DNA of 64,000 bases, taken from Lachnospiraceae bacterium. Its GTDB lineage: Bacteria; Bacillota; Clostridia; Lachnospirales; Lachnospiraceae. The stretch is from the NCBI GenBank assembly GCA_029008875.1, contig JAQXJP010000003.1, positions 6,710 through 70,709 of the forward strand. The letters run 5' to 3'. Positions 162 through 35,222 of the stretch are shown here, one piece after another. The translations under genes and the position numbers were made by a program. Position 1 is the stretch's first letter, and each line of letters opens with the position of its first letter. The notes under the pieces were generated by a model, which worked only from the letters and a program-made list of their open reading frames with translations, ran no database searches and was not told where the DNA came from.

Positions 162-968
162 ATGGTAGTACAACACAACATGCAGGCTATGAATGCTAGC
201 CGAGTTCTCAACGTAACAGCTGGACAGCAGGCAAAGAGCACAGAGAAGTTATCTTCGGGATACAGAATCAACCGTGCAGCAGATGATGCAGCAGGTCTCT
301 CTATTTCTGAGAAGATGCGTAAGCAAATCAGAGGTCTTGACCGTGCTTCAACAAATGCACAGGATGGTGTATCTGCAGTACAGACAGCTGAAGGTGCTTT
401 GGCAGAAGTTCACTCAATGCTTCAGAGAATGAACGAATTGGCAGTTCAGGCAGCAAACGGAACAAACTCATCCAAGGATATCTCTGCAATCAGCAACGAA
501 GTTACTGCATTGAAAGCAGAGATGGATCGTATCGCTGATACAACCGACTTTAACGGAAAGAAGATGTTGGCTGGCTCAAGTGTAGCTATTTTTGTTGGTT
601 ACACAACAGCATCACAGAACACTATTACCATCAGCGGACAGGACTTGAAGTCGAAAGTTAGTAGCCTTGGACAGTTTTCAACAAGTTCTGCTGCTAAAAC
701 AATGCTTGGTAAGATTTCTACAGCAATTGAAGAGATTTCAACAATGAGATCTGATTTCGGTGCTGTTCAGAACAGACTTGAGCATACCATCGACAACTTG
801 GATAACGTTGTTGAGAACGTAACTGCATCTGAGTCACGTATCCGTGATACAGATATGGCTGACGAGATGGTTAAGTACTCTAAGAACAACATTCTTACAC
901 AGGCTGGCCAGTCAATGCTTGCACAGGCAAATCAGTCAACTCAGGGTGTATTGTCATTACTTCAGTAA
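162..968 (+). CDS. fliC: Flagellin (short, 268 aa)
   Basis: N-terminal EKLSSGYRINRAADDAAGLSISEKMR and C-terminal QNRLEHTIDNL...SRIRDTDMA...LAQANQ flagellin motifs; AGGAGG RBS. Confidence 0.98.
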   Translation: MVVQHNMQAMNASRVLNVTAGQQAKSTEKLSSGYRINRAADDAAGLSISEKMRKQIRGLDRASTNAQDGVSAVQTAEGALAEVHSMLQRMNELAVQAANGTNSSKDISAISNEVTALKAEMDRIADTTDFNGKKMLAGSSVAIFVGYTTASQNTITISGQDLKSKVSSLGQFSTSSAAKTMLGKISTAIEEISTMRSDFGAVQNRLEHTIDNLDNVVENVTASESRIRDTDMADEMVKYSKNNILTQAGQSMLAQANQSTQGVLSLLQ

Positions 969-2062: not shown

Positions 2063-2869
2063 ATGGTAGTACAGCATAACATGCAGGCAGCAAATGCCAG
2101 CAGAGTATTAAACATCACAGCAGGGCAGCAGACAAAGAGTTCCGAGAAGTTATCTTCCGGATACAGAATCAACCGTGCGGCAGACGATGCGGCTGGGCTT
2201 TCTATTTCCGAGAAGATGCGTAAGCAGATTAGAGGTTTGGATCGTGCATCAACAAACGCACAGGATGGTGTGTCAGCGGTCCAAACAGCGGAAGGTGCAC
2301 TGAACGAAGTGCATTCTATGCTTCAGAGAATGAATGAGTTGGCAGTTCAAGCTGCAAATGGAACGAACTCTTCCAAAGATATTACAGCAATTAGCAATGA
2401 GGTTACTGCATTGAAGGCCGAGATGGACCGTATTGCAGATACCACAGATTTTAACGGTAAGAAAATGTTGGCAGGATCTGGAGTATCAATTTTTGTAGGA
2501 TATACAACTGCAAGCGCAAACTCCATTGAAATTACTGGACAGGATTTGAAAGGCGCGGTAAGTTCCATTGTTGCATTTACCACCAGTTCTGCGGCAAAGG
2601 CTATGCTTGGGACAATTTCTGCTGCGATTGAAGAAATTTCTACGATGAGATCTGATTTTGGTGCTGTTCAGAACAGACTTGAACATACTATTGACAACCT
2701 TGATAATATCGTTGAGAATGTAACGGCGTCTGAGTCACGTATCCGCGATACAGATATGGCTGATGAGATGGTTAGATACTCTAAGAATAACATTCTTACA
2801 CAGGCCGGCCAGTCAATGCTTGCTCAGGCAAATCAGTCAACACAGGGTGTTCTGTCATTACTTCAGTAA
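2063..2869 (+). CDS. fliC: Flagellin (short, 268 aa), close paralog of 162-968
   Basis: Same flagellin motifs and length; differences are concentrated in the central variable segment. Confidence 0.98.
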   Translation: MVVQHNMQAANASRVLNITAGQQTKSSEKLSSGYRINRAADDAAGLSISEKMRKQIRGLDRASTNAQDGVSAVQTAEGALNEVHSMLQRMNELAVQAANGTNSSKDITAISNEVTALKAEMDRIADTTDFNGKKMLAGSGVSIFVGYTTASANSIEITGQDLKGAVSSIVAFTTSSAAKAMLGTISAAIEEISTMRSDFGAVQNRLEHTIDNLDNIVENVTASESRIRDTDMADEMVRYSKNNILTQAGQSMLAQANQSTQGVLSLLQ

Positions 2870-15842: not shown

Positions 15843-17114
15843 TTGTTAGAGCATACAGTGGCAATCAAATCTCAAGAAATCAAATACCTAAAGAAGAGAA
15901 AAAGAAAAGCTACAATAGAAAAGCTGTGCTTTTATGTTTGTAGAGTATTTCCCATAAAAAAGAACCTTATTAGTGTATGTACATTCGAGGGAAAAGGAGG
16001 ATTTGGTTGTAATGCTAAACCGTTAGTGAAAAAAATACATGAAACGAAACCGGAATGCGAGTTCGTATGGTTTGTCAATGATAGGAATAAAGAATTTCCT
16101 GATTATATAAGAAAAGTACCTAATTCCTTATGGAGTAGAGCATATTGGCTTTCTAGATCAAAGGTGTGGATTGATAATTATAGAAAACCATTGGGAACTT
16201 GTAAAAGAAAAGGACAATACTATTTGAATGTTAACCATTATACCATAGGCATAAAATGTACAGGTTTATTAAGAGGAGAAGGTTTTTCAGAAATGGCATA
16301 TTTAGTCAGTAAAAATGACTCGGATATGATTGATAATTTGGTTATAGATTCAAACTGGTGTGAACAGTGTTTTGATAAGGCATTAGTATATGAAGGAACA
16401 TTTTTAAAGACAGGAGCACCAAGATGTGATGTTTTATATGGTGAACGAACCAGAATGAAAGAGCAATTTCGCATAAAATATGGATTGCCAGATGATGCAA
16501 AAGTTGTAATGTTTGCACCGACATTTCGAGAAGATGCTAAAAATGGTGTTCGAAGTGTATATTCAGAGATTTGGACGATAGATTTTAAAAGACTTATTCA
16601 TAATTTAGAAAAAAAATTTGGCGGGCAATGGTATGTTTGTGTAAGGGTACATCCACAGCTGGCACCTACATTTAGTGAATATAAGAATTCTAAAATACAA
16701 GACAGACTAATAGATGAAAGTCAGGCTGATGATATGTATGAGATACTAGCAGCGATGGATGCATATATTACAGATTATTCTAGCGCATGTTTTGAAGCCG
16801 GATTTGCACATATTCCTGTATTTATCTATGCAGATGATATACAAAAATATGCAAAGGATAGAGGCGCACTAATGTGGAATATTTCATCCGATCCACGATA
16901 TGACGTGAGAAACAACAAAAAGTTTACGCCAATGTTGAATATTCAATTTCCATTTTCAATTGCAAGTAATAATGAACAGTTACAACAGAATATATTGGAA
17001 TTCAATCAGAATGAATACAATAAAAAATTAGATGTATTTTGTGGTAAGGTTGGACTGGTGTTTGATGGGAATGCAAGTGGGAAAATAGCTGATGTAATAG
17101 CCAAATATATTTGA
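15843..17114 (+). CDS. CDP-glycerol glycerophosphotransferase (TagB/TagF family)
   Basis: WIDNYR, KGQYYLN, TGAPRCD, MFAPTFR, YITDYSS motifs. Confidence 0.85.
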   Translation: MLEHTVAIKSQEIKYLKKRKRKATIEKLCFYVCRVFPIKKNLISVCTFEGKGGFGCNAKPLVKKIHETKPECEFVWFVNDRNKEFPDYIRKVPNSLWSRAYWLSRSKVWIDNYRKPLGTCKRKGQYYLNVNHYTIGIKCTGLLRGEGFSEMAYLVSKNDSDMIDNLVIDSNWCEQCFDKALVYEGTFLKTGAPRCDVLYGERTRMKEQFRIKYGLPDDAKVVMFAPTFREDAKNGVRSVYSEIWTIDFKRLIHNLEKKFGGQWYVCVRVHPQLAPTFSEYKNSKIQDRLIDESQADDMYEILAAMDAYITDYSSACFEAGFAHIPVFIYADDIQKYAKDRGALMWNISSDPRYDVRNNKKFTPMLNIQFPFSIASNNEQLQQNILEFNQNEYNKKLDVFCGKVGLVFDGNASGKIADVIAKYI

Positions 17115-17144
17115 TAAACATAGTGGTAAGAAATGGTATAAAAG

Positions 17145-18401
17145 ATGAAAAAAGTGTATTTATTTGGAGCAGGAACCGCTGCATATGGGGTTATTTCATA
17201 TGTTGGGAAAGAAAATATTATTGCTGTGATAGACAATAAAGAAAAACTACAAGGGGATAATATATTAGATGTTCCTATAATATCGTTTGAAAAGTTTTTG
17301 AATGAAAACGACGATGAGGAAATTGTTATTACGGCAGCAATATGTGAAAGTATAGTTGAGCAACTGAAAAAAAATAAGATAAATAATTATAGTTTGGCAC
17401 CATTAGTTACAATGGGGAATATTTTTAACCCAGAACAGATTCTAGAGAGATGCAGAAATAAGGAGGAAATATTTGTTCTAGGAGACGATATAGTTATGCG
17501 GAAATTTTGTGATTATATGGAAAGTAATCACAAGGAATGTATGGTAAACGTTCTTCCAAGAGAATTTGGACAGATGGAAGTGCCGGAAAATGCAGAATTG
17601 CTTATTTTTGGAGAATTATTGGATGAAGCAGAGAAAAAGATACTAGAAAAATATAGGAGTAAGAAATTTGTATATGACTTTAAAGATAATCATAGATATA
17701 ATAACCTTGAAAAATACAATAATCTGCACAAGGGGGAAAAATGTTTCATTGTTGGTAATGGCCCAAGTTTACGGATGAGTGATTTAGAAATAATACAAAA
17801 AAGTAATATTTGTAGTTTTGGATTTAACTTAATTTACAATATATATGAAGATACTAGTTGGAGAGCCTCGTACATAGTTATTGCAGACTATACCGTTTAC
17901 AGAGCTTATTATGATGACTTTGTAAGACAAGCTTCACCGAAAATGTTTATTAAGGATTTTTATTCAATTGAAGGGACCCCTCGAATTGACGGCGTAAATT
18001 ATTATCCCGCTAGTGCATATAGATTGTACAATGATAGGCAAAAGTTTTCTTCGGATATAACTCGAAATGTGAATGGAGCTTATACTGTAATGTACGATGC
18101 AATTCAAATTGCAATATATATGGGGTTTAAAGAGATATACTTAATAGGAGCAGATTTTAGTTATTCAAAGGATCCAGTGCAAGATGGTAATCACGTGTAT
18201 GATGGTAAGATAAAAGATAGAAGAAAAGCAGTAGGCGAGTATTATCTTGATGTGTCATTTAATGCATTTAAAAAAGCTCGGGAATATGCTGATGCACATG
18301 ATATAAAAATAATTAATACTACAAGAGGTGGTAATTTGGAAATTTTTGAAAGAAAAAATATAGATGAAGTATTTGAGGAGATTGAAAACAGTGATATGTA
18401 A
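17145..18401 (+). CDS. Maf/DUF115 (MAF_flag10-like) protein with N-terminal Rossmann-like domain
   Basis: HKGEKCFIVGNGPSL, IAIYMGFKEIYLIGADFSY, NTTRGGNLEIF. Confidence 0.82.
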   Translation: MKKVYLFGAGTAAYGVISYVGKENIIAVIDNKEKLQGDNILDVPIISFEKFLNENDDEEIVITAAICESIVEQLKKNKINNYSLAPLVTMGNIFNPEQILERCRNKEEIFVLGDDIVMRKFCDYMESNHKECMVNVLPREFGQMEVPENAELLIFGELLDEAEKKILEKYRSKKFVYDFKDNHRYNNLEKYNNLHKGEKCFIVGNGPSLRMSDLEIIQKSNICSFGFNLIYNIYEDTSWRASYIVIADYTVYRAYYDDFVRQASPKMFIKDFYSIEGTPRIDGVNYYPASAYRLYNDRQKFSSDITRNVNGAYTVMYDAIQIAIYMGFKEIYLIGADFSYSKDPVQDGNHVYDGKIKDRRKAVGEYYLDVSFNAFKKAREYADAHDIKIINTTRGGNLEIFERKNIDEVFEEIENSDM

Positions 18402-19275
18402 AATTTGCGGGGGAAAAGAAATATCAATAATATTTGATGGACAGATTCGTGACGGAGGATTAGATAATTACACAAAAGAAAATATTCAAATGTTTCAATG
18501 CAATTGTTGTAAAGTTATATGGCATGATTCAATGATGAATTTGAATCAGTATTATGAAAGTACAGAATATAGAGAATCATTGGAAGGAACAACTGATGAG
18601 GAAACATTTTACCGTTTGCATGATAAAGAAACCTTGAGCAAATTACAATATACTGGAACGGAAGTGTTTAGAAATAAGACTACGGCAGATATTGGGTGCG
18701 GATGTGGAGCGTTTCTAGATTATGTAAATGGAGTTGCATCAAAAGTGATTGCGATTGAACCATCGAAATATTATCGCAATATAATGGATAGAAAAGGGTT
18801 TTATACATATCCTTATGCGGAAAATGCAATCGAAGAATGGAGAGAGAAGGTAGATGTAATTACCTCGTTTGACGTGATCGAGCATGTTGAAAATCCACAG
18901 ACATTTTTATGTGAATGTAAGGAGTTGCTTAAGAGTGGAGGAACAGCAATCATAGGTACTCCGACGGATGCACCGATTATGAGAGAACTGCTAGGGCCGA
19001 TATATGAAAAAAAGCTACTATTTAGTACGCAACATTTGTGGATTTTTTCAGAGGACAGCCTCCAGAAGATGGCTAGATATGCTGGATTTTCTTCTGTTCA
19101 AGTAAAGTATTTCCAGCGATATGGAATAGGCAATTTGCTTGGGTGGATAAGAGAAAGAAGAGCGGGATCATCGATTGAGAGCTCATTTTTAACGGATACA
19201 ATGGATGCGGTATGGCGCAAGGAAAGTGAAGCGCAGGGTTTATCAGATTATATAGTCCTGTATGTTACAAAGTAG
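18364..19275 (+). CDS. Class I SAM-dependent methyltransferase with N-terminal Zn-ribbon (probable start GTG 18391)
   Basis: CKIC...CNCC, DIGCGCG, FDVIEHV, LKSGG. Confidence 0.88.
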   Translation: MKYLRRLKTVICKICGGKEISIIFDGQIRDGGLDNYTKENIQMFQCNCCKVIWHDSMMNLNQYYESTEYRESLEGTTDEETFYRLHDKETLSKLQYTGTEVFRNKTTADIGCGCGAFLDYVNGVASKVIAIEPSKYYRNIMDRKGFYTYPYAENAIEEWREKVDVITSFDVIEHVENPQTFLCECKELLKSGGTAIIGTPTDAPIMRELLGPIYEKKLLFSTQHLWIFSEDSLQKMARYAGFSSVQVKYFQRYGIGNLLGWIRERRAGSSIESSFLTDTMDAVWRKESEAQGLSDYIVLYVTK

Positions 19276-19293
19276 TTTAAAGGAGATAAAAAT

Positions 19294-19944
19294 ATGAAAG
19301 TTGTGTCTTTCATTCCAATTAAATTGAATAACCAAAGATTGCCAGGTAAAAATCTGAAGGAACTGAATGGTAGGCCATTATGTGACTACATTTTTGAGAC
19401 GGTCAAAGGAATTAGCCAGATAGATGAAAAGTATGTATATTGTAGCGATGAAAAAATTTGTGAATATATACCGGAAGGAATCAAATTTTTTAAGAGAAGT
19501 ACCGATTTAGATGGATTTCATGTTAAGGGATTAGACATAATAGCTAAATTTGTAGAGGACGTAGATGCAGACATTTATGTACTCACGCATGTTACGCAAC
19601 CATTTACTAAATCTGAATCATTAATAAAGGGCTTAGAAGCTGTTTTAAGTGGAGAATATGATTCTGCATTCAGTTGCATAAAAATACAGGATTATTGTTG
19701 GTATAAGGGGCTGCCTTTTAATTATGATATGAAAGATATTGTTACAACGCAGAATCTTGAACCAATTTATATGGAAACAGGGGCCTTCTATATTTTTACA
19801 AAAGATGTTTTTACAAGATTGCATCAGCGCATTGGGGAAAAACCTTACATGTGTGTTATTGATCAATTGGAGGCAGTAGATATTGACGAAGCGGAGGATT
19901 TCGAATTTGCAAAGGTAGTGGCTGAATATTTTGCGAGGGATTAG
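19294..19944 (+). CDS. Acylneuraminate/ulosonate cytidylyltransferase (NeuA/KdsB-like)
   Basis: IPIKLNNQRLPGKN, HVTQPF, YMETGAFY, VDIDEAEDF. Confidence 0.85.
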   Translation: MKVVSFIPIKLNNQRLPGKNLKELNGRPLCDYIFETVKGISQIDEKYVYCSDEKICEYIPEGIKFFKRSTDLDGFHVKGLDIIAKFVEDVDADIYVLTHVTQPFTKSESLIKGLEAVLSGEYDSAFSCIKIQDYCWYKGLPFNYDMKDIVTTQNLEPIYMETGAFYIFTKDVFTRLHQRIGEKPYMCVIDQLEAVDIDEAEDFEFAKVVAEYFARD

Positions 19945-21553
19945 TGCTATGAAAAAAATAAAGATCCTTGATTGTACGTTGCGTGATGGCGGTAGAATTG
20001 TAGATTGCAAGTTTCAAGATGAAGTGATTGTGGGAATTGGACGATTTTTGCGAAAAGCAAAAATTGACATTGTTGAATTGGGATTTTTAAGAGACCATAT
20101 TGAATTTGACGGAAACAGCACTTTTTTTGGAGAAGTAGAGCAAGCGGATAAATATATTGAACAGATAGGAGAAGAAAACCAGAGTTTTGTTTTATTTGTG
20201 GATTATGGTCTTTATAATATAAATAATCTTGCGATAAAAGGGAATAGTAAAGTATCGGGTATTCGATATGGATTTACTAGAAAAAATTATCTTGAGCATC
20301 GAGACGAAATTATAGCAGATATGAATATGATCCGGGAGAAAAATTATGACCTATATATCCAAACGGTTTTTACTAATGGATATGCAACAACGGAGCTGCT
20401 AGAATTGATATCTTTGGTAAATGAAATCTGCCCGGTTTCGTTTGGGATTGTAGATACATATGGCTCCATGTATTTAGATGATCTGGATTATATTTGGAAT
20501 ATTGTAAATCATAATCTCAAGAAAGAAATTGCAATAGACTTTCATTCTCACAATAATATGCAAATGTCTTTTGCAATGACTCAGCGTATCATCCAATTAT
20601 CAAATAATGAGCGAAGCCTTGTTATTGATTCAACAATGAATGGCATAGGAAAATGTGCAGGCAATCTTAATACAGAATTGATTGTGGATTATCTCGTTCG
20701 AAAAAAAAATTATGATTATAATACAGATGCAATTTTAGATGCAATTGATCGTTACATAGAACCTTTGAAAAAAAGTAATGAATGGGGATATACCGTTCCT
20801 GCATTTATGGCGGGGATATATAAGGCCCACCCCAACAATGTGATTTTTCTTACTTCAAAGTATCGTCTAAATAATTGTGATGTAAAATATATTCTTTCGC
20901 GTATAGATGAGGAAAAGCGCCAAAGATATGATTATGACTTAATACAAAAGCTATATCTGGAATATTCCTCAACCAAAGTTGACGACACACAAATTTTAGA
21001 GCAGCTTTCGGATGTGCTAAAGGGGAAAAAGGTATTGGTATTGGCGTCTGGAACAACTATTGAAACATACAAAGACAATATTATTGAGTATATAGAAGAA
21101 AATAATCCGGTTGTGGTTAGTGTCAATTTTAAGCCATGTGATATCAAGGTAGACTATGTTTTTTTTACGAATGTGATTCGGTGGGAGGAGTTTACCAATA
21201 AAACGAATCAGGAAAAATTCATATTGTCAAGTAATATCCATACCGATAATGAAAATGTAAAGATTGTTAATTATTCAAGTTTGATTGAAGAATGTAGTGT
21301 AATGCCAGATAATAGTACAATAATGCTATTGAATTTGTTGGATCATATTGGTGCAACAGAAATAGGGATAGCAGGATTTGATGGGTTTAATGAACAGAAT
21401 CGCAATTATATTGATGGCACCGAACCAACAAGACAGATTAATATGACTTTTGAGCAAATAAATGGAGAAGTACGAAAGCTGTTTAAAGCCTATAGAGAAC
21501 GAGTAATGGGAAAAATAAAGGTGTATACCATAACACCAAGTAAGTATTGTTAG
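19931..21553 (+). CDS. DRE-TIM (HMGL-like) aldolase-domain protein with C-terminal extension (probable start ATG 19949)
   Basis: ILDCTLRDGG, IVDTYG, FHSHNN, GIGKCAGN; C-terminal VLVLASG...IAGFDG domain. Confidence 0.8.
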   Translation: MRGISAMKKIKILDCTLRDGGRIVDCKFQDEVIVGIGRFLRKAKIDIVELGFLRDHIEFDGNSTFFGEVEQADKYIEQIGEENQSFVLFVDYGLYNINNLAIKGNSKVSGIRYGFTRKNYLEHRDEIIADMNMIREKNYDLYIQTVFTNGYATTELLELISLVNEICPVSFGIVDTYGSMYLDDLDYIWNIVNHNLKKEIAIDFHSHNNMQMSFAMTQRIIQLSNNERSLVIDSTMNGIGKCAGNLNTELIVDYLVRKKNYDYNTDAILDAIDRYIEPLKKSNEWGYTVPAFMAGIYKAHPNNVIFLTSKYRLNNCDVKYILSRIDEEKRQRYDYDLIQKLYLEYSSTKVDDTQILEQLSDVLKGKKVLVLASGTTIETYKDNIIEYIEENNPVVVSVNFKPCDIKVDYVFFTNVIRWEEFTNKTNQEKFILSSNIHTDNENVKIVNYSSLIEECSVMPDNSTIMLLNLLDHIGATEIGIAGFDGFNEQNRNYIDGTEPTRQINMTFEQINGEVRKLFKAYRERVMGKIKVYTITPSKYC

Positions 21554-21568
21554 AGGGAGGGATGCTTA

Positions 21569-22397
21569 GTGGAGAAAGCTATATGTTTTGGAGCCGCAGA
21601 CGGTGGAAAGAGACTTTTTAATGAAGTATCAGCGAAGTATGAGATAATATCGTTTACTGATAACGATAAGGGTAAAGTAGGGGGGTATAAACGAAGTACA
21701 GATTTGAAGTTTAGAAGACTGTTTGAAAATGGAATGGGATGTAATAGTAATAACTTCGGCTCCAGGATTGGAAAATATTAAGAATCAGCTTATCGAAATG
21801 GGAATTGATAGAAGAAAAATTGATACTTCTTTTGTGGAAATGCCATTGCTGAGTAGAATTACTTTCTTGCAAAGAATGTCAGAAATACAAAGAACAGAAG
21901 ATGCAGCAGTTGCAGAAGTCGGAGTATTTGAAGGGGATTTTGCAAAATGGATTAATCGATTTTATTGTAATCAGATGTTGCATCTTTTTGATACATTTGA
22001 AGGGTTTGATAAGCGAGATATAGAAAAGGATAATCTATATTCGAATGCCAACGTCGGGGACTATGCAAATACAAGTGTCGAAATGGTAATGAAAAAAATG
22101 CCTTTTCCAGAAAAAGTTGTGATACATAAAGGTTATTTTCCAGATACTACACAAGGGATAAATGAACTATTTGCTTTTGTAAATTTAGACGTGGATTTAT
22201 ATGAACCAACATACAAGGGATTAATGTATTTTAAGGAACGAATGATCTCTGGTGGAATCATTTTAGTACATGACTATTTTGCAACTAATTTTCAAGGGCC
22301 AAGGAACGCTGTTGACCGTTTTATCGAAGAGATGAATGATATGTATAGAAAATATCCGATAGGTGATGGTATTAGTATTATGATAACAGGCTTTTAA
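21569..22397 (+). pseudogene. TylF/MycF-family O-methyltransferase, split into two frames near 21680-21725
   Basis: ORF 21569-21781 holds a Rossmann-like start (ICFGAA...TDND); ORF 21723-22397 continues it and has VAEVGVFEG, LFDTFEGF, KGYFPDT, LDVDLYEPT, VHDY. Confidence 0.65.
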
Positions 22398-22407
22398 AGG
22401 TGATTAT

Positions 22408-22887
22408 ATGGTTATAAGAATTTTAGTTATGGACGTAGATGGGACAATGACTGATGGAAAAATATATATTGGCCCGATGGGAGAAATGGTAAAATGTTTT
22501 GATGTGAAGGATGGTTATGGCATACATAATCTGCTTCCACAAAAAAATATTATTCCTGTTGTTTTAACGGGCAGAGAATCAGATATTGTAACGAAACGAT
22601 GCCAAGAATTGGAGATTCCTTACGTGATTCAGGGAAGTAAAGATAAAGTGCATGATTTAGGACAGTTACTAGAAGATTTATCACTTAAATGGGAAAATGT
22701 AGCTTATATCGGAGATGATCTTAATGATTTAGAGATAATGCGTAAAGTGGCATGGGCAGCATGCCCATGCGACGCGGTTGAAGAAGTTAAGAAAATATGT
22801 CACTTTATTGCATCGAAGGAAGGAGGAAAAGGAGCAATCAGAGAAACGATTGAGTTTTTGATAGCTCGCTTAAATATTATTGACTAA
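22408..22887 (+). CDS. kdsC: KdsC-like HAD phosphatase
   Basis: MDVDGTMTDG, FDVKDGYG, YIGDDLND, GGKGAIRE. Confidence 0.85.
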   Translation: MVIRILVMDVDGTMTDGKIYIGPMGEMVKCFDVKDGYGIHNLLPQKNIIPVVLTGRESDIVTKRCQELEIPYVIQGSKDKVHDLGQLLEDLSLKWENVAYIGDDLNDLEIMRKVAWAACPCDAVEEVKKICHFIASKEGGKGAIRETIEFLIARLNIID

Positions 22888-24097
22888 TACGCTTGTACAA
22901 ATTTCTATTATTACTGCAATCTATAATAAGTCACAGTACTTGGACGATTATGTGGAAAGTATAAAAAGCCAAAGCTTTAAAAATTTTGAAGTTATATGTG
23001 TAGAGGATTGTTCGACAGATGATTCTATGGAGCATTTGCAAGAGTTGGTTTTAGACGATTCTAGATTTGTAATTGTTCAAAATGAGGTAAATAGTGGTTT
23101 ATCTGTGAGTAGAAATAAAGCCATTAAAATGAGTAAAGGAAAATATATCTGTTTTCTTGATGCCGATGATTGTTTTAGACCGAATGCACTCGAGATATTG
23201 TGGAAAAGTGCAGAAAAATTCAAACTAGAAGGGATTTTCTTTGGAGCATCTGAATATTCAGAAGATTTGAAGAGAGAATTAAGAACTATTCAATATAAGA
23301 AACAGTATCCTGTGTGCGACGGAAAGTCATTAATGGCATTGTTACATGAGAGGAATGAGTATCAAAGTGCTTGTGGATTTCAGTTATGGAATAAGGAATT
23401 TATTCGTCAAATGGAAGTGGATTTTTTCCCAGGGATTGTTTATGAGGATACCCTATTTACGCTCCAGACATTATTAAGGGCAAAACGTGTTATGGTAATA
23501 TCTGATGTTTTATATATCTATAGAAAATGCAATAATTCTATTTCACATAGTCTAGGAATAGAACAGTTATATTCGTGTGTAGTCATTTATGATGAATTGT
23601 CAAAAATCGCAAATGAGTATTTGGATGATTATCAAGCTTATCCCGAAATTTTAGATAGAATTCAACTATTTAGTAGGAGAATAGAACATATAGTATGTAC
23701 GGTTCAAGAGGATAGTTTACCTAAATTTTATAATTCAAGATATAACATGATTTTACAAACTTTCTTAAAGGATTACAAATATCCATATTTAAGAACACTT
23801 TCAATTGATGAAATAAATAAATTAAAGAGATCGAAACAAGTGTTTATTTTCGGAGACGGAGTAATTGCTGAAGAAACATTAGTATTTTTGAAAAGACAAG
23901 ATGTAAAGATAAAGGGGATAATAGTTTCTTATCTTGAACAGCAAAAAAGATGGCATGACTATAGAATGATAGCAGTCGATGACTTTTATGAAGATGGAAT
24001 AGTTGTAATATCTGTAACGGAAAAGTGGCGAGATGCTATTGAGAGTATTTTACATATGAGGGGGAATGAAACAATATATATTACACAAAATGGTTAG
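22880..24097 (+). CDS. GT2 glycosyltransferase with C-terminal Rossmann-like domain
   Basis: ISIITAIYN, EDCSTD, FLDADD, YEDTLF; C-terminal VFIFGDG. Confidence 0.88.
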   Translation: MTNTLVQISIITAIYNKSQYLDDYVESIKSQSFKNFEVICVEDCSTDDSMEHLQELVLDDSRFVIVQNEVNSGLSVSRNKAIKMSKGKYICFLDADDCFRPNALEILWKSAEKFKLEGIFFGASEYSEDLKRELRTIQYKKQYPVCDGKSLMALLHERNEYQSACGFQLWNKEFIRQMEVDFFPGIVYEDTLFTLQTLLRAKRVMVISDVLYIYRKCNNSISHSLGIEQLYSCVVIYDELSKIANEYLDDYQAYPEILDRIQLFSRRIEHIVCTVQEDSLPKFYNSRYNMILQTFLKDYKYPYLRTLSIDEINKLKRSKQVFIFGDGVIAEETLVFLKRQDVKIKGIIVSYLEQQKRWHDYRMIAVDDFYEDGIVVISVTEKWRDAIESILHMRGNETIYITQNG

Positions 24098-24397
24098 GCA
24101 ACAAAATGACCATCTTTTCTTTTTTCTCAAATGGAACGGTATCATCGTCGGAGGAGTTAGATTAGCATAGGTTGTCAGGAGGATTTATAAACAGGTTCTT
24201 TGCTTTATGGCTTTCTGCCGAAAACTCCAAAAGCCTTAAGGTTCATCATATTTAGATCAAAAAATCATGAATCTTAGGTTGCTTTGCACCATAAGTGTTT
24301 TAGCAATAACCTATGTGTCGACCTTATTGACTAGACAACCATAATCACCTCATTGAGCGTGTACTACAAATAATAAAGATGCAAATTTGGAGAAAAT

Positions 24398-25555
24398 ATG
24401 CTAAAAAAAGACTACATGATAAGTATAATAGTGCCAATCTATAATATTGGAGAATATCTGGTAGAGTGCATTGAAAGCTTGATAAAGCAGACACATAGAA
24501 ATATTCAAATTATTTTAGTAGATGATGGGTCAACTGATAATTCTGGATTAATATGTGATCAATATGCTGAATGTGATGATAGGATAGAGGTTATTCATCA
24601 AAAGAATAAAGGGTTAGTAGAAGCAAGAAAAGCAGGATTACGTATTGCAAAAGGAACTTTTGTTGGATTTGTTGATGGAGATGATTATGTCGAATCAACA
24701 ATGTATGAGATATTATTATCAAATATGCTAGAAGAGAATGTTGATGTAGTGCATTCGGGTTACATTGTCAATAAGTGGGGAAGAGAGAGAAAAGTAGTTC
24801 AATATGATAGAAAAGTAGTAGACAAGAGTACGGATTTGCTGAGTGATATTCTATTATCCAAAAGCCGAATATCTCCAAGTATATGGTCGAAGCTATTTAG
24901 GAAAGAAATAATACAAGAATGTTATGATGAAGTTAATGATTGTGCATCATATGGTGAAGATTTGATTTGTTTGGTTTCAATTGCAGTACGATCATATAGA
25001 GTTTTTCTTATAGATGACGCTTTTTATCATTATAGGGAAAGAGAGGAATCCATTTCACATATCAGAAAGTCAGGAGCATATTTAAAAGAAATTCTTTTAT
25101 GTGAAAATGTAAAAGATGTGCTACTTAAGCATGATCTTTTCCAAAATCATTTTTCAGAATATAGTGCTTTTACAAGAGAACATTTACTTGTAGCACTTCA
25201 GAAGGATAGTGATAACACTTTTGCAATTCAAAAATATGTATTTCCAAATCCAGAACTATTACAACATAAGAAGATAGTAATTCTAGGAGCAGGAAAAGTT
25301 GGCAGAGATTTTTATTCACAGATTTGTAGATATACAAATTGCCAAGTGGTAGCTTGGATTGATAACTATCCAGAAAAATACCACTATGAATTTATTGATG
25401 TTGAGTCACCAGAAATAATCTGTAATATCGTATTTGATATTATCGTTATAGCAGCATTAGAAAAGAAAACTTATGAAGAAATGAGAGACAGTCTAAGTTG
25501 TTATAACATACCCAATGATAAAATGATTTGGATAAAACCCAATAGAGATATATAG
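24398..25555 (+). CDS. GT2 glycosyltransferase with C-terminal Rossmann-like domain
   Basis: ISIIVPIYN, VDDGSTD, FVDGDD, GEDL; C-terminal IVILGAG...WIDN. Confidence 0.9.
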   Translation: MLKKDYMISIIVPIYNIGEYLVECIESLIKQTHRNIQIILVDDGSTDNSGLICDQYAECDDRIEVIHQKNKGLVEARKAGLRIAKGTFVGFVDGDDYVESTMYEILLSNMLEENVDVVHSGYIVNKWGRERKVVQYDRKVVDKSTDLLSDILLSKSRISPSIWSKLFRKEIIQECYDEVNDCASYGEDLICLVSIAVRSYRVFLIDDAFYHYREREESISHIRKSGAYLKEILLCENVKDVLLKHDLFQNHFSEYSAFTREHLLVALQKDSDNTFAIQKYVFPNPELLQHKKIVILGAGKVGRDFYSQICRYTNCQVVAWIDNYPEKYHYEFIDVESPEIICNIVFDIIVIAALEKKTYEEMRDSLSCYNIPNDKMIWIKPNRDI

Positions 25556-25581
25556 CACTTATTATATCTGGAGAATAGGAT

Positions 25582-27372
25582 ATGCTGTATTCATTTGACA
25601 TATTTGATACATTAGTAACAAGAATTACATATTATCCCATAGGGCTTCATGATGTAGTGCAGGAATTTATACGCAATGATAGTGAGATACCTAGGTACGT
25701 AAGGAATAATTATGCAGGCATTCGATCAGAAGCAGAAAAAAAAGCAAGAGATTATTCCGAATTTGTCGGGGATGAAGAAATATCCTTGCATAAGATTCAT
25801 CATATCATTTCAGAGTATTCAAATTATTCCGATAATAATATTAGTAGTTTGGAAAAAATAGAAATCGATACTGAAATTAAATGTGTTTTGCCAATTACAA
25901 GCATGATTGATTGGGTAAAAGAATTAGTTAATTTAGGTAAACATGTGATTCTTATTTCGGATATGTATTTGAGTAAGCAGACGATAAGGGAGATGTTGGT
26001 TAGTTTGGATTCGGTATTCAAAGATATACCGATATTTGTTTCTTGTGATTATAACAGGACAAAGGCTATTGGGAGTATTTATGCTTACATACATGAAACT
26101 CTTGGAATAGAATACAAAGACTGGCATCATACAGGGGACAATAGACATTCTGATTTTCTTGTTCCTCAGACGTTAGGAATTACATGTGAATTACTTGAGG
26201 GCTGGAAAGAATCTTCTTGGATAAAGGAGTTACGAGACACATGTGATATCAATATGGTAGATGCGCAAGTTGTGTTTGGAGTAGTTAAATATATAAGTTG
26301 TGGAATTGATTCAGATTTGACAAAACTTGGGAAATCATTTGCAGGAATTATCGTTGAGGAATACGCAGAGTGGATAATACGTAGAGCATTACAGGATAAC
26401 ATAGAAGAACTATATTTCATTGCAAGAGATGGTTATGTCATAAAGAAGGTTGTAGATTTCATAATAGAAAAGAACGGAATAAATATATCAACGAAATATA
26501 TATATGGCTCTCGGAAGGCATGGCGTGTGGAGGATGCATTGGCAAGAGAGAATATCATACAGTATTTTAGAGAAAATGTTAATTTTAATAAGAGAATAGC
26601 ATTCGTCGATGCAAATGGTACAGGTGTCTCTATTTCGTTAGTTGCAGACCTTCTAGGTGAAATGTGGAATCATGAAATTCCAATTTATTATTTTAGCTTT
26701 CATAGGCAAGTCGAGAAGTCAAAATGTTGTTTTTTCAATTATTGTTACAATGCTTCGGATATCATCGAATTGTTATGTAGTGCAACACACGGAACGACCG
26801 TTGGATATCAGTTGCAAGAAGGAAAAATGAAGCCGGTTCTTGCAGAAGGTACGGTAGGAGAAAATCTGGACGAATATGTGAAAGGAATATTGGCCTATAC
26901 CGATATGTTGCTTAATGTAAAACATAAGCTTGGTATAGAAATAAACGCTAGAAGAATAGTAAAATGTCTTGTTTCAACGAAGAGGTATTCTTCAGGTATG
27001 ACACTACAAGATTTCTGGACTGCGCTCAATACACAAACGGAGTCTACTATTGATGTACCGGAGATTGACTATACGATTGATACATTAAAAAGCCCAGAGG
27101 CGCAAAGAGTGATTATTTACGGGGCTGGCATAGTTGGGAAAAGAATGTTTTGTGAATTGAACAAGAGTCAGGAGACATTGATATCTGCATGGACAGATAT
27201 CAACTATATAGAATGCATGAAGAAAGGATTACCTGTTATTTCCGTTAATGAGGCTGTTAAGAGAGAATATGATTATATACTAATTGCGATTAAAAATCGT
27301 GCGGCAGTTAAATCGGCGAAATGCATATTGACGCAATTAGGGGTGGATGAATCGGCGATAAGATATATATAA
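25582..27372 (+). CDS. HAD-superfamily hydrolase with C-terminal Rossmann-like domain
   Basis: YSFDIFDTL, ILISDMY, HTGDNRHSD, YFIARDG; C-terminal IIYGAG. Confidence 0.8.
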   Translation: MLYSFDIFDTLVTRITYYPIGLHDVVQEFIRNDSEIPRYVRNNYAGIRSEAEKKARDYSEFVGDEEISLHKIHHIISEYSNYSDNNISSLEKIEIDTEIKCVLPITSMIDWVKELVNLGKHVILISDMYLSKQTIREMLVSLDSVFKDIPIFVSCDYNRTKAIGSIYAYIHETLGIEYKDWHHTGDNRHSDFLVPQTLGITCELLEGWKESSWIKELRDTCDINMVDAQVVFGVVKYISCGIDSDLTKLGKSFAGIIVEEYAEWIIRRALQDNIEELYFIARDGYVIKKVVDFIIEKNGINISTKYIYGSRKAWRVEDALARENIIQYFRENVNFNKRIAFVDANGTGVSISLVADLLGEMWNHEIPIYYFSFHRQVEKSKCCFFNYCYNASDIIELLCSATHGTTVGYQLQEGKMKPVLAEGTVGENLDEYVKGILAYTDMLLNVKHKLGIEINARRIVKCLVSTKRYSSGMTLQDFWTALNTQTESTIDVPEIDYTIDTLKSPEAQRVIIYGAGIVGKRMFCELNKSQETLISAWTDINYIECMKKGLPVISVNEAVKREYDYILIAIKNRAAVKSAKCILTQLGVDESAIRYI

Positions 27373-27404
27373 ATATAAGAGTATTTGATTCAAGAGGTAA
27401 ACGG

Positions 27405-28808
27405 GTGGAATTAAAAAATATAGTATTATGGGGAACTGGTATAATTGGGAAAAAATATTATAGTATGCTACAAAAATTGGGGAAAAAGCCAGTTATGTTT
27501 GTAGACAATAATATTGAAAAGCAAGGAAAATTCATGGATGATATTCCGATATACCCACCGGATATTCTGAAAAATGCTAATGACTATACAGTTTTGATAG
27601 CTTGTAAAGCAAATGATGATATATATAAGCAGGCACTAGAGTTGGGAATTAGTGAGAATAAGATTTTTTCAGTTTATGATACTAGTTATATTCTTATGTC
27701 ATATTTGATTGACTGCGATGCGTGGAATATCGGAGAAATAAGAAACAAAGAACGGAAAGAAAACTCTATTGCTATTGATTTGCAGAATGGAGCCGCTCTT
27801 GGTGGAGTGGAGACATGGGCCTTGGAGCAAGGAGAGAAACTGAGAACAGCTGGAAAAAAGGTAACATTTATGCTTGGAAATCCAGAGAATAATCAACTGG
27901 TTATTCCAGCGTATTTTGAATCAGTTAATATAAGTATTGAAAAAGACCTGGAACAACAGGTTATGGAAAATGTAACATTTCTTATTTCACGACAGTGTGA
28001 TGTTGTTATAAGCAATTTTGTGGGCAACATTTTTATTGCGTATTGTTACTATAAGAGATTGCATGAAAAGGTCAAACACATTATGGTTATACATAATGAT
28101 GAACTTCCTTATTTCAAAGCGGCAATCGCAATGCAAGAATATATTGACTTTTGTATCGTAATAAGCACACGGATAAAAGAAAAGTTATTATCATGTGGTT
28201 TTCCTGAAAAAAAGATTGTAGTTCTGAACTGGAATATATCGGTGTCTGACGATTATAGACTTGTTACAAAAAATGAGAAACTTAGAATCGGTTATGCCGG
28301 AAGAGTTACAAAGAAACAGAAAAGATTAGACTTTCTTCCAAAGATTATTGATAAGTTAAATCAGGAAAAAATTGTTTATATATTTGAGCTTGCAGGCGTA
28401 GGGGATTACTATGATGAATTAGAGGAATATATTTGCAGTAATGACTTGAAAGATCGGGTTGTTTTATTAGGCATGCTTGAAAAGAGCAAAATGAGAGACT
28501 TTTGGCGTGGGCAGGATATTTATTTAAGCTGTTCGGATTGGGAAGGACACAGTATATCGCAATGTGAAGGAATAGCATCGGGAGCAGTACCTGTCGTTAC
28601 GGATGTATCGGGAGCAGGCGATGATATAGAGGATGGCGTTACAGGGTACATTGTTTCGGTTGGCGATTGGGAAGCACTTGCTGATAGGATAGTTTATCTT
28701 GACCAACATAGAGATATTTTAAAAAGAATGTCCGATGCAGGAATGGACAAGATGCGCGAACGAAATAGATTGTTTAGGGATAATGTTTTGGAGGAATTAT
28801 GCCGTTAG
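27405..28808 (+). CDS. GT4-family glycosyltransferase with N-terminal Rossmann-like domain
   Basis: GYAGRV...QKR, SDWEGHSISQCEG (E-x7-E); N-terminal IVLWGTG...FVDNN. Confidence 0.88.
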   Translation: MELKNIVLWGTGIIGKKYYSMLQKLGKKPVMFVDNNIEKQGKFMDDIPIYPPDILKNANDYTVLIACKANDDIYKQALELGISENKIFSVYDTSYILMSYLIDCDAWNIGEIRNKERKENSIAIDLQNGAALGGVETWALEQGEKLRTAGKKVTFMLGNPENNQLVIPAYFESVNISIEKDLEQQVMENVTFLISRQCDVVISNFVGNIFIAYCYYKRLHEKVKHIMVIHNDELPYFKAAIAMQEYIDFCIVISTRIKEKLLSCGFPEKKIVVLNWNISVSDDYRLVTKNEKLRIGYAGRVTKKQKRLDFLPKIIDKLNQEKIVYIFELAGVGDYYDELEEYICSNDLKDRVVLLGMLEKSKMRDFWRGQDIYLSCSDWEGHSISQCEGIASGAVPVVTDVSGAGDDIEDGVTGYIVSVGDWEALADRIVYLDQHRDILKRMSDAGMDKMRERNRLFRDNVLEELCR

Positions 28809-30121
28809 TTTCAATTATTATGCCCTCGCTGAATGTAGCGGGATATATAGACGAGTGCTTAAAAAGTGCAACGAATCAAACCCTGCGAGATATTGAGATT
28901 ATATGCATAGATGCGGGATCAACAGATGGAACAAGAGAAATAATTGAGAAGTATGTAACAATAGATAGCAGAATTAAACTCATAGATAGTACTGTTAAAA
29001 GCTATGGATTTCAGGTAAACCTTGGAATACAAGAGGCAAAAGGCGAGTATATTGCCATTCTTGAGACGGATGATTATGTAGACCAGGAAATGTATGAGAG
29101 GCTATATTCTTGCGCATGTGAGTGCAATGCAGAATATGTAAGAGCAGATTATGATGAAATATGCGAAGTAAACAATTACATGATATGCAACACACAGCAT
29201 ATTTTTAATAATAGTTTGTATTATGATAAACTCTTTGATAATCGGTATTTCAAAGAGTTGTTCTCTAAAGATCAAAATATTTGGAGCGGAATATACAAAA
29301 AGTCCTTTCTTGAAAAATATCATATAAGATTAAATGAAACCCCTGGAGCTGCATTTCAGGATATCGGATTTAAATTATTGACTCTTATTTATGCAGAGCG
29401 AATTATGTATATAAATTATAGCGGCTATAGATATAGACTTGATAGAGACGGCTGTTCTAGCTGTAATAATAATGTGCTGAAATTTGCATGGCAGGAATTT
29501 GCAAGACTTTTGAATCAAATGGATCTGTCTATGTCAGACCGATTTAAGTATGTGATATTGCGAATGATAGATGTTTTTATATGCGAGCATAATAAACTGG
29601 TAACAAAAAATTCTGCTGGGGACCAGGAGAAGTTCTACGAAACATATATTAAGCCGTACTATTTTGAGTTTAAGAAAAGCATAAATGGTTTTTTGTTAGA
29701 TGGGGTTGTATCAAAAGAAGATATGAGCGAGCTTCAGTTTATGACACTCATGTCGTTACTTCACAATGAAGAAGATTATAATAATACAATAATTCAAGAC
29801 AAGGAAAAGAAAGAAAATTCTTGGAATGAATTGGCTGATAAATTGAAAGATTCGCAGATTGTTATTGTCAGTTATGGGGTAAGAGGAAAAGATGCATTAA
29901 AACAATTGATTATTCGAAACATGAATGTTGTTGCAATCTGTGATAATAGTAGTGAGGTAAGAGCGCAAAAAATAGGAGTTCCTATATTCTCGGTTGAAGT
30001 GGCCACTGGACTATACAAGAATGCAGCATATGTTATTTCAAATAAAAAATACTCTGATGAGCTGAAGAACCAGTTGATTTCATACGGAGTATCAAAAGCG
30101 AATATTATTCAGATGCCATAA
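28799..30121 (+). CDS. GT2 glycosyltransferase with C-terminal Rossmann-like domain
   Basis: VSIIMPSLN, IDAGSTDG, ILETDD, AFQD; C-terminal SYGVRG...ICDN. Confidence 0.88.
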   Translation: MPLVSIIMPSLNVAGYIDECLKSATNQTLRDIEIICIDAGSTDGTREIIEKYVTIDSRIKLIDSTVKSYGFQVNLGIQEAKGEYIAILETDDYVDQEMYERLYSCACECNAEYVRADYDEICEVNNYMICNTQHIFNNSLYYDKLFDNRYFKELFSKDQNIWSGIYKKSFLEKYHIRLNETPGAAFQDIGFKLLTLIYAERIMYINYSGYRYRLDRDGCSSCNNNVLKFAWQEFARLLNQMDLSMSDRFKYVILRMIDVFICEHNKLVTKNSAGDQEKFYETYIKPYYFEFKKSINGFLLDGVVSKEDMSELQFMTLMSLLHNEEDYNNTIIQDKEKKENSWNELADKLKDSQIVIVSYGVRGKDALKQLIIRNMNVVAICDNSSEVRAQKIGVPIFSVEVATGLYKNAAYVISNKKYSDELKNQLISYGVSKANIIQMP

Positions 30122-30157
30122 TACTGAAAATGGGTTTGACAAGTTAGGGAGAATATA

Positions 30158-33270: not shown

Positions 33271-33273
33271 TAA

Positions 33274-33324
33274 TTGACAGCATCCTCCTGTAGGAGTACA
33301 ATATACTCCTACAGGAGGATGTTG
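33274..33324 (+). promoter_or_regulatory. SigA promoter embedded in a 47-bp inverted repeat (probable operator)
   Basis: TTGACA 33274-79, N17, TACAAT 33297-302; arms CAGCATCCTCCTGTAGGAGTA (33278-98) and TACTCCTACAGGAGGATGTTG (33304-24), 20/21 complementary; the right arm holds the AGGAGG RBS. Confidence 0.8.
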
Positions 33325-33325
33325 T

Positions 33326-35171: not shown

Positions 35172-35222
35172 AAAAACAGGATGAGCCGAATCCCTTGATG
35201 GGGTATGACTAATCCTGTTTTT
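35172..35222. terminator. Bidirectional terminator-like inverted repeat between convergent genes
   Basis: AAAAACAGGAT ... ATCCTGTTTTT. Confidence 0.55.

Follow-up and report, generated by a model that had tools for sequence, protein, structure and literature searches.

Can a 3-deoxy-2-ulosonic (Kdo- or sialic-acid-like) sugar be made and attached to flagellin without a PEP-dependent synthase? No route to Kdo, Kdn, sialic, pseudaminic or legionaminic acids is known to us that does not start at a PEP-dependent NeuB- or KdsA-type synthase. The question is raised by a cassette at 17145-22887 of the window, the whole 64,000-nucleotide stretch of DNA analysed from a gut Lachnospiraceae bacterium. 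A Maf protein, two methyltransferases, a cytidylyltransferase, an aldolase and a KdsC phosphatase are encoded, all on the + strand and tightly packed; this gene content is shown. The reading preferred here, by a modest margin, is that the cassette is self-contained for PEP-independent synthesis of a CMP-activated sugar of this kind and for its transfer onto flagellin, with a DRE-TIM class II pyruvate aldolase in place of NeuB/KdsA and with probable O-methylation. The identity of the sugar is unresolved; activity and acceptor are inferred. The relevant features are:

162..968, + strand: flagellin, 268 aa, presumed acceptor (Flagellin_N 149 bits, Flagellin_C 103 bits)
2063..2869, + strand: second flagellin, 268 aa, presumed acceptor (Pfam; 91% identity to the first by self-BLAST)
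17145..18401, + strand: Maf/DUF115 (MptE-like) transferase, 418 aa (PF01973, 56.3 bits, cut-off 34.6)
18364..19275, + strand: class I SAM methyltransferase, Methyltransf_23, with an N-terminal Cys4 ribbon (profile match)
19294..19944, + strand: CMP-ulosonate-type cytidylyltransferase (CTP_transf_3), 216 aa (PF02348, 52.7 bits, cut-off 22.6)
19949..20965, + strand: aldolase, N-terminal part, DRE-TIM barrel and DmpG-like helical domain (PF00682, NF006049, fold)
20966..21553, + strand: aldolase, C-terminal MptE-like domain, ~195 aa (hhalign, AF2/Foldseek)
21569..21722, + strand: out-of-frame remnant, N-terminal small Rossmann domain of the TylF-like methyltransferase (three-frame translation)
21723..22397, + strand: TylF-type O-methyltransferase, catalytic domain (PF05711, 42 bits)
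22408..22887, + strand: KdsC/YrbI-family (HAD-IIIA, C0) sugar-acid phosphate phosphatase, 159 aa (TIGR01670)
32606-33604: flagellin remnant, in the island
35221-36528: fliD, in the island

All cassette proteins score above their Pfam/NCBIfam family cut-offs. An earlier note had claimed a cluster of Maf/DUF115, NeuA/KdsB-like, HMGL-like and KdsC-like genes, and no NeuB/KdsA-type synthase in the window. Both claims held; the four genes lie on the + strand as listed, and the absence extends to the whole genome. The surroundings are a low-GC flagellin glycosylation island with flagellin genes on both sides. The cassette sits among flagellins, a flagellin remnant and fliD, and the island assignment is thereby met. 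The flagellins are encoded ~15-17 kb upstream, and the ~15 kb flagellin-to-cassette spacing recurs in two other Lachnospiraceae. Directly upstream of the cassette is a TagF-like glycerophosphotransferase; LicD and several GT2/GT4 genes are found around it.

The cytidylyltransferase meets CTP_transf_3 membership by a Pfam score above cut-off and by the N-terminal nucleotide-binding motif FIPIKLNNQRLPGKN. The N-terminal motif RLPGKN is KdsB-like. Among solved structures, a NeuA and KdsB come closest; the best NCBIfam match is PseF (65 bits, below cut-off), and the KdsB equivalog cut-off is likewise not reached. The phosphatase meets KdsC/YrbI membership (TIGR01670, 157.2 bits, subfamily cut-off 106.95), retains its catalytic motifs MDVDGT and GDDLND (DxDxT, GDxxxD) intact and matches the Aquifex AQ2171 and E. 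coli KdsC structures at E 5e-32 to 2e-31. Its substrate is undetermined, since it falls below the equivalog cut-offs for both Kdo-8-P (NF007019, 152 vs 208 bits) and Kdn-9-P (NF058599, 136 vs 180 bits). Neither enzyme reaches any NCBIfam equivalog cut-off.

A genome-wide search for neuB and kdsA, suggested earlier, found neither. NeuB (PF03102) has no match in the window or in the whole genome, which is 93% complete, so a missing NeuB is not strictly excluded. KdsA was not found genome-wide; the one protein that matches PF00793 is an AroFGH DAHP synthase beside aroD. KdsD/KpsF and PEP mutase are not present in the genome. Within this scope, absence of NeuB, KdsA and KdsD is shown. No dedicated aldose-phosphate precursor gene is present, and the sugar substrate of the aldolase is therefore a guess. 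Three cytidylyltransferase-aldolase pairs occur in the genome, falling into three distinct clades. In one paralogous cassette KdsC is fused to DUF386/YhcH, a family that also has a member in the sialic-acid (nan) operon of E. coli.

What fills the synthase slot is an HMGL-like (DRE-TIM) aldolase of 534 aa (ORF 19931-21553; PF00682, 61.2 bits, cut-off 29); the true start is likely the ATG at 19949. DRE-TIM/PF00682 membership is met by a TIM barrel above the gathering score, and the metal ligands Asp and His-x-His with the LRDG Arg are present; LRDGG and HSHNN show little or no variation across 40-81 homologues. The N-terminal part matches 3dxi and 1nvm in sequence and the DmpG subfamily NF006049 with 69 bits over 6-317. 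Its AF2 model (pLDDT 91) is aligned by Foldseek to 3dxi, DmpG, HsaF and AmnG at TM 0.77-0.85, and superposes on the DmpG, IPMS and HCS barrels. The fold assignments are shown. PDB 3dxi (Bacteroides vulgatus BVU_2661, 'putative aldolase', structural genomics) belongs to the same family and is the top match in both sequence (E 2e-15) and fold (TM 0.85, target-normalised); it differs in that only the barrel (N-terminal domain) was crystallised. No function assigned to it and no paper discussing it were found in the literature searched.

Apart from this uncharacterised entry, the nearest neighbours in sequence and fold are the DRE-TIM class II pyruvate aldolases DmpG, BphI, HsaF and AmnG, with which barrel plus helical domain, Asp/His/His metal site and LRDG Arg are shared. 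The aldolase is thus placed closest to DmpG/BphI-type enzymes; pyruvate aldolase activity is inferred, without biochemical evidence. The 4-hydroxy-2-oxo acids formed by such enzymes have the same skeleton as the products of NeuB and KdsA. Unlike these relatives, the aldolase carries an extra C-terminal domain, scores only 60-69 bits against an equivalog cut-off of 286 (TIGR03217, 60.3 bits, not met) and lacks an acylating dehydrogenase partner. No DmpF-like acylating acetaldehyde dehydrogenase lies next to it; the neighbours are the cytidylyltransferase, phosphatase, methyltransferases and glycosyltransferases. The context is aromatic catabolism in the relatives and biosynthetic glycan synthesis in the cassette. 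The catalytic His after LRDG, His21 of DmpG and His20 of BphI, is not conserved, being Arg in the present clade and Tyr in most others. The chemistry may for that reason differ from that of DmpG.

The C-terminal domain has no Pfam match, was previously unannotated and was missed in the earlier note. Its motifs are APGxS, VNF, SNxxRY, (S/T)SN, DNS, AGFDG and NY. It matches a Maf profile by hhalign (probability 74%, E 3e-5), is modelled by AF2 at pLDDT 92 and has M. jannaschii HPPK/MptE 8sd5 (E 3e-5) and SteA as top Foldseek matches.

A CMP-activated acid could be made without the aldolase being the backbone synthase, the enzyme instead catalysing a Claisen-type condensation (acetyl-CoA with a 2-oxo acid, as in IPMS and citramalate synthase) or making a small non-carbohydrate hydroxy-oxo acid substituent. 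In favour are weak matches to DRE-TIM Claisen condensases (IPMS 49 bits, CimA 41 bits), the loss of the DmpG catalytic His, and the existence of an HpcH_HpaI::aldolase fusion, a hint that the 2-oxo-acid chemistry of some members may be more complex. Against it, the full barrel and helical domain are best matched by DmpG-type aldolases in sequence and fold; NeuA/KdsB-type enzymes need a cyclic 2-ulosonic hemiketal, which short hydroxy-oxo acids cannot form; the substrates of KdsC-family phosphatases are Kdo-8-P, Kdn-9-P or Neu5Ac-9-P; and the genome has no other ulosonic-acid source for the cytidylyltransferase, KdsC and Maf. This alternative is unlikely.

Pyruvate aldolase as backbone synthase remains the preferred reading, and conservation of the cassette bears on it. 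Of 81 loci outside this genome, 72 have the cytidylyltransferase directly upstream of the aldolase; directly downstream is KdsC (36/81) or HAD_2 (17/81), 53/81 together. This synteny spans Bacillota, Bacteroidota, Spirochaetota, Fusobacteriota, Synergistota, Campylobacterota and Melainabacteria. Natural fusions are aldolase::CTP_transf_3 (5 of 10 long representatives), aldolase::KdsC-like and aldolase::HAD_2. Conserved order and domain fusions are shown, and on these grounds the genes are not together by chance; clustering of cytidylyltransferase, aldolase and phosphatase exceeds what chance would give. The co-occurrence analysis of this trio, proposed in advance, thus found it both co-occurring and fused across phyla. 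At least 578 loci were confirmed in GTDB species genomes, and in a sample of 201 Lachnospiraceae genomes with one from each genus, 42 are positive. The family is not tied to CMP-sugars only, since a monophyletic sub-clade lacks the cytidylyltransferase and has the order aldolase, TPP enzyme, HAD_2, SDR.

The ulosonic acid could also come from a NeuB/KdsA encoded in the unassembled 7% or be scavenged from host or diet, the aldolase being a lyase or accessory enzyme. The incomplete genome allows this, and 24 of 36 aldolase-positive Lachnospiraceae genomes encode a strong NeuB somewhere. Scavenging of sialic acid is known among gut bacteria. Against it, the other 12 carriers have no convincing NeuB. 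Where present, NeuB belongs to a distinct module that brings a cytidylyltransferase and a Maf of its own: relative L002 has the cassette, equipped with Maf and cytidylyltransferase, alongside a full pseudaminic-acid module, PseB/C/F/H/I(NeuB), that includes a second Maf, and the cassette therefore does not borrow NeuB. Fusions of the aldolase to cytidylyltransferase and phosphatases argue for consecutive biosynthetic steps, and the present genome holds three independent cassettes. Either source is considered very unlikely.

The remaining genes concern transfer and modification. The Maf protein meets Maf/DUF115 membership by an MptE-like domain above cut-off (PF01973). It has a small Rossmann domain, PglD_N/NeuD-N-like, at residues 1-100 and the DUF115 core at 178-342; motifs are GNGPSL and IGADF, with weak matches to NeuD, WaaZ (Kdo transferase) and PglD_N. 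Transferases travelling with the cytidylyltransferase-aldolase pair are Maf/DUF115 and polysialyltransferase-like proteins, and, as far as is known, characterised members of both use CMP-ulosonic donors. The two flanking methyltransferases, to which possible O-methylation had been ascribed earlier, are present. Orthologues of the Methyltransf_23 protein (338-433 bits) occur in L002, L006-L011 and L024, and it is kept within the flagellar version of the cassette. The TylF-like enzyme has orthologues in L006, L008, L009, L011 and L014; its N-terminus is likely frameshifted in the present genome, as inferred from sequence alone. Three-frame translation against the orthologues in L006, L008, L009 and L011 places the apparent frameshift at ~21686-21709, and in the upstream remnant a GTG at 21569 comes with a strong RBS.

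DUF115 proteins also accompany the pair in C. leptum and Lactimicrobium, where the flagellin search gave no match; a Maf-like protein alone does not, therefore, imply flagellin. The CMP-ulosonic acid might accordingly be transferred to a glycan chain or wall polymer and not directly to flagellin Ser/Thr. This is supported by those two genomes and by polysaccharide loci of the present genome on C35, where DUF115 proteins likewise accompany the pair, by the TagF-like, LicD and GT2/GT4 genes around the cassette, and by the weak WaaZ match. It is opposed by the bracketing of the island by flagellin genes and fliD, by the repeated flagellin-cassette arrangement in two other Lachnospiraceae, and by characterised Maf proteins, which glycosylate flagellin directly (bioRxiv 10.1101/2023.12.03.569772; PMC4065374). 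It is held to be improbable, and flagellin remains the preferred acceptor.

In the proposed pathway the aldolase would bind pyruvate on a divalent metal via Asp19, His205 and His207, with Arg18, and the pyruvate enolate would attack the aldehyde group of some common aldose phosphate, giving a 3-deoxy-2-ulosonate omega-phosphate. The MptE-like domain may supply the phosphate as a kinase or sense a nucleotide product. The KdsC-type phosphatase would strip the phosphate, pulling the reversible aldol reaction forward; the NeuA/KdsB-family enzyme would form the CMP-sugar with CTP; one or both methyltransferases may O-methylate the sugar; and the Maf/DUF115 transferase would place it on Ser/Thr of the two upstream flagellins. 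Enzymatic activities, sugar identity and chain length, and acceptor are inferred, without biochemical or glycan-structure evidence. It counts against the pathway that aldol addition of pyruvate can run backwards and is favoured less than condensation with PEP. The earlier inference of an alternative 3-deoxy-2-ulosonic route is supported by every in-silico check proposed with it; biochemical proof is lacking.

Like the CMP-Kdo pathway (KdsD, KdsA, KdsC, KdsB; KpsF/KpsU in capsule), this route would join a sugar phosphate and a C3 unit into an ulosonate phosphate, dephosphorylate it by KdsC and activate it with CMP by KdsB/NeuA; a true YrbI-family phosphatase and the KdsB-like RLPGK motif are shared. 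It departs from that pathway in that the genome lacks both KdsA (PEP-dependent DAHP_synth_1 fold) and KdsD, and in that the synthase slot is taken by an unrelated metal aldolase of the DRE-TIM type with a fused MptE-like domain; the C3 donor is presumably pyruvate and not PEP, the host is Gram-positive, and flagellin is the proposed destination of the product. As in Pse/Leg flagellin glycosylation, a CMP-ulosonic acid would be handed to a Maf/DUF115 transferase within a flagellin glycosylation island. A HAD phosphatase would act on a phosphorylated intermediate, a step shared with the routes to sialic acid and Kdn of animals and Bacteroides (NeuB/NANS, NANP or BT1713-type Kdn-9-P phosphatase, NeuA/CMAS). 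Unlike all of these, the cassette has no NeuB-family synthase and no aminotransferase, dehydratase or acetyltransferase genes for Pse/Leg precursors. No paper describing an aldolase-based route was found in the literature searched.

A bolder reading, which we lean against as a joint claim, is that the aldolase::MptE-like protein is both aldose kinase and pyruvate aldolase, founding a PEP-independent ulosonate-synthase family in several hundred species, and that the three diverged copies here would yield three ulosonic acids without NeuB/KdsA, one of them O-methylated on flagellin.

Given the setting among flagellin genes, mass spectrometry on a cultured carrier, of which Lachnospira rogosae CLA-AA-H255 is one, could test the idea directly. 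If true, chemo-enzymatic synthesis would gain a new aldolase family for making ulosonic acids from pyruvate. Genome surveys for ulosonic sugars look for NeuB/KdsA-type genes, and would overlook a large set of producers. Counts of acidic keto-sugars on the flagella and capsules of gut commensals that are abundant would likewise come out too low. Flagellins of Lachnospiraceae are reported to be prominent targets of the immune system.

The cassette at 17145-22887 (plus strand) is interpreted as an ulosonic-acid biosynthesis module with a non-homologous, pyruvate-dependent synthase. This reading is inferred, is favoured only by a modest margin and is without biochemical support. The genome is of the Lachnospiraceae type, 2.63 Mb in size, in 43 contigs, with a completeness of 93%. 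The cassette is located within a flagellin glycosylation island with the following features.

162-968 and 2063-2869: two flagellin genes, 91% identical to each other
17145-18401, plus strand: Maf/MptE-like protein (PF01973, 56 bits)
18364-19275, plus strand: Methyltransf_23 methyltransferase (Pfam)
19294-19944, plus strand: CTP_transf_3 cytidylyltransferase with a KdsB-like RLPGKN motif; its closest relatives of solved structure are a NeuA and KdsB
19949-21553, plus strand: HMGL-like aldolase (PF00682, 61 bits)
21723-22397, plus strand: TylF-like methyltransferase (PF05711, 42 bits)
22408-22887, plus strand: KdsC/YrbI phosphatase (TIGR01670, 157 bits against a cut-off of 107), DxDxT and GDxxxD intact
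32606-33604, minus strand: C-terminal flagellin remnant
35221-36528: fliD

A continuous same-strand run of glycosyltransferase, LicD, CDP-polyol-type and TagF-like genes extends from the flagellin genes to the remnant and fliD. Cassette genes overlap or are separated by 4-20 nt, with the sole exception of the gap 5' of the TylF-like gene. The phosphatase matches E. coli KdsC (E about 1e-31). Phosphatase and cytidylyltransferase are below every NCBIfam equivalog cut-off; the chain length of the proposed ulosonic acid is not readable from sequence. No significant match to the Maf protein was found among PDB sequences. Its residues 1-100 (17145-17450) are an appended small Rossmann domain resembling PglD_N/NeuD-N; the same domain is N-terminal on the TylF-like methyltransferase of relatives (L014:2561-3412, a related locus). 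The G + C content is 32-35% at 16-32 kb, compared with 41-43% in the island's left part and 45-50% around rpoB/rpoC. Separate, horizontal acquisition of the 16000-32000 block, the cassette-bearing half of the island, is therefore suggested. A plasmid search gave a single distant, partial match only.

The window's TylF-like gene appears to be disrupted at 21569-21730: its N-terminal small Rossmann (PglD_N-like) domain is out of frame with the catalytic domain. A frame opened by a GTG at 21569 with a strong ribosome-binding site matches orthologues for about 45 codons and is then lost. The apparent frameshift is between about 21686 and 21709, and the catalytic domain resumes in a different frame from 21723/21730. 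A genuine lesion and an assembly error are both possible.

The first approximately 340 residues of the aldolase are nearest, by sequence and fold and with the helical domain included, to the class II pyruvate aldolases DmpG, BphI, HsaF and AmnG. The sequence match is to the DmpG subfamily (NF006049) over residues 6-317 and to PDB 1nvm, 4lrs and 8ih7; the AF2 model of this part has a mean pLDDT of 91 and target-normalised Foldseek TM scores of 0.77-0.85. An uncharacterised Bacteroides vulgatus protein of the same family (3dxi) is a closer match than the DmpG-type aldolases. Neither the metal ligands nor the LRDG arginine varies. In place of DmpG His21, the clade of the window's aldolase has Arg and most other members have Tyr.

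Residues ~345-534, searched alone, have no Pfam match; only hhalign and AF2/Foldseek gave this domain an identity. It is highly conserved, with the motifs APGxS, VNF, SNxxRY, (S/T)SN, DNS, AGFDG and NY. By hhalign it matches the profile of the cassette Maf proteins (probability 74%, E 3e-5); modelled alone (pLDDT 92), its best Foldseek neighbours are M. jannaschii HPPK/MptE (8sd5) and SteA. From these matches the protein is inferred, by profile comparison and model prediction, to be a fusion of a DRE-TIM aldolase with a nucleotide-binding domain of the MptE-like type. MptE itself is a pyrophosphokinase, with a primary alcohol as its substrate. Three roles of the fused domain are possible, all untested: kinase is ranked first, product-sensing regulatory domain second and transferase last.

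The aldolase family comprises 569 clusters at 50% identity (E <= 1e-30). At least 578 loci were confirmed in GTDB species genomes. Within Lachnospiraceae, sampled as one genome per genus, 42 of 201 genomes are positive. Cytidylyltransferase, aldolase and phosphatase had been noticed as clustered in the earlier note, and their association held across seven phyla: a cytidylyltransferase is directly upstream of the aldolase in 72 of 81 non-redundant loci, and KdsC (36/81) or a HAD_2 phosphatase (17/81) is directly downstream. A DUF115 protein is nearby in 37 of the 81. Ten unusually long representatives include fusions of the aldolase to CTP_transf_3 (n = 5), to a KdsC-like phosphatase (n = 1) and to HAD_2 (n = 1). 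A further one of the ten (P0234, a metagenomic representative of 772 aa) carries an HpcH/HpaI class II aldolase domain N-terminal to the aldolase::MptE-like protein. A Claisen-type or non-sugar product of the aldolase is an unlikely alternative, by which the fusions with cytidylyltransferase and phosphatases are explained less well than by ulosonate synthesis.

Two other arrangements were observed. A monophyletic aldolase sub-clade (100% support; L055, L057, L064, L070, L072, L073, L078) is without the cytidylyltransferase. There the genes after the aldolase encode a TPP-dependent enzyme, a HAD_2 phosphatase and an SDR, and in many cases an IspD-like cytidylyltransferase is present as well; decarboxylation and reduction of a like 2-oxo-acid phosphate may lead to a CDP-activated deoxy-alditol, which is inferred and only possible. 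In capsule-like loci (L036, L037, L043, L048, L049, L058, L063, L067, L069, L071, L075, L080) the cytidylyltransferase-aldolase pair occurs with a 688-aa protein without Pfam match and a second protein, of ~540 aa, whose match to alpha-2,8-polysialyltransferase is borderline. These two proteins are possible candidates for polymerases of a poly-ulosonic-acid capsule.

The earlier note had claimed that no NeuB/KdsA-type synthase occurs in the window. The claim held and extends genome-wide, at 93% completeness. A NeuB (PF03102) profile search of the genome gave no match, with 9 of 14 control genomes positive. The PF00793 search for KdsA gave one match only, an AroFGH-type DAHP synthase adjoining aroD. 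Neither KdsD/KpsF nor PEP mutase was detected in the genome. The canonical Kdo route was rejected there for lack of KdsA and KdsD/KpsF. Phosphonate chemistry, with an FrbC-like DRE-TIM enzyme, cytidylyltransferase and TPP decarboxylase, was rejected for this genome because PEP mutase is absent. Among 36 aldolase-positive Lachnospiraceae genomes, NeuB matches are strong in 24, weak only (30-46 bits) in eight and absent in four.

Although NeuB, KdsA and KdsD/KpsF are absent, three cytidylyltransferase-aldolase pairs are present in the genome. The second and third are on another contig (C35).

C35:250501-254427 (extracted locus L086:6499-10386), minus strand: cytidylyltransferase, aldolase, HAD_2 phosphatase, KdsC::DUF386 (YhcH/YjgK/YiaL) fusion, SDR epimerase/dehydratase
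C35:282492-285726 (extracted locus L087:10490-13724), minus strand: 279-aa DUF115 protein, canonical CTP_transf_3 (178 bits), very divergent aldolase on a long branch

The second cassette is part of a polysaccharide locus that also encodes GtrII, GT8 and GT2 proteins, an ABC exporter and a short MptE-like protein; around the third are GT4/GT2 genes and one for a membrane protein with DUF6077. The three aldolases belong to three separate, well-supported clades of the aldolase tree and are therefore not recent duplicates. A fourth, short DRE-TIM homologue (contig C16) was set aside for lack of glycan context. Supply of the ulosonic acid from a hidden or scavenged source is very unlikely; it accounts less well than synthesis through the aldolase for a genome that has three cassettes and neither NeuB nor KdsA.

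In the aldolase tree, nine Lachnospiraceae cassettes, that of the window among them, form a clade with 100% support; in eight of the nine the Methyltransf_23 methyltransferase adjoins the aldolase. A conserved ORF of 52-53 aa is present between methyltransferase and cytidylyltransferase in L002 (7125-7286), L003, L004 and L005, and is absent from the window. No flagellin turned up in 84 related loci searched to 10 kb from the aldolase, their flanks being too short to reach it. By whole-genome flagellin search, two members of the nine-cassette clade, L006 and L009 (cultured Lachnospira rogosae CLA-AA-H255), have same-strand flagellins located ~14-15 kb upstream, an arrangement also seen in the window. 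After Maf, Methyltransf_23 methyltransferase, cytidylyltransferase, aldolase and KdsC, in this order, locus L002 has another Maf and a complete set for pseudaminic acid (PseC-like, CTP_transf_3, PseB-like, NeuB, acetyltransferase). Two insulated modules are therefore side by side. An acceptor other than flagellin is unlikely, and this tandem arrangement is explained less well by it than by flagellin modification. The same holds for each of the three rivals with respect to the fusions, the three cassettes and the tandem arrangement alike.

In the preferred pathway, inferred at every step, a metal-bound pyruvate enolate would condense with an aldose phosphate to form a 3-deoxy-2-ulosonate phosphate. 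KdsC or a HAD phosphatase would render the sequence irreversible. A CMP-sugar would be made by the NeuA/KdsB-type enzyme, modified by the methyltransferases and moved onto flagellin by Maf. Near the core, related loci share no gene for precursor formation, a pointer to a probable central-metabolism sugar phosphate as the acceptor. The chemistry would match that of the routes to Kdo and Kdn and of sialic-acid synthesis in animals, except that the synthase would use pyruvate and have an unrelated fold. In the full-text literature searched, no account was found of an HMGL/DRE-TIM aldolase taking part in the synthesis of ulosonic acids or flagellin glycans. The window contributes a flagellar, Maf-linked, methyltransferase-bearing version of the cassette and a genome with three cassettes and no canonical genes. 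Its analysis contributes the fusion evidence, the KdsC::DUF386 fusion and the division of the aldolase family into clades.
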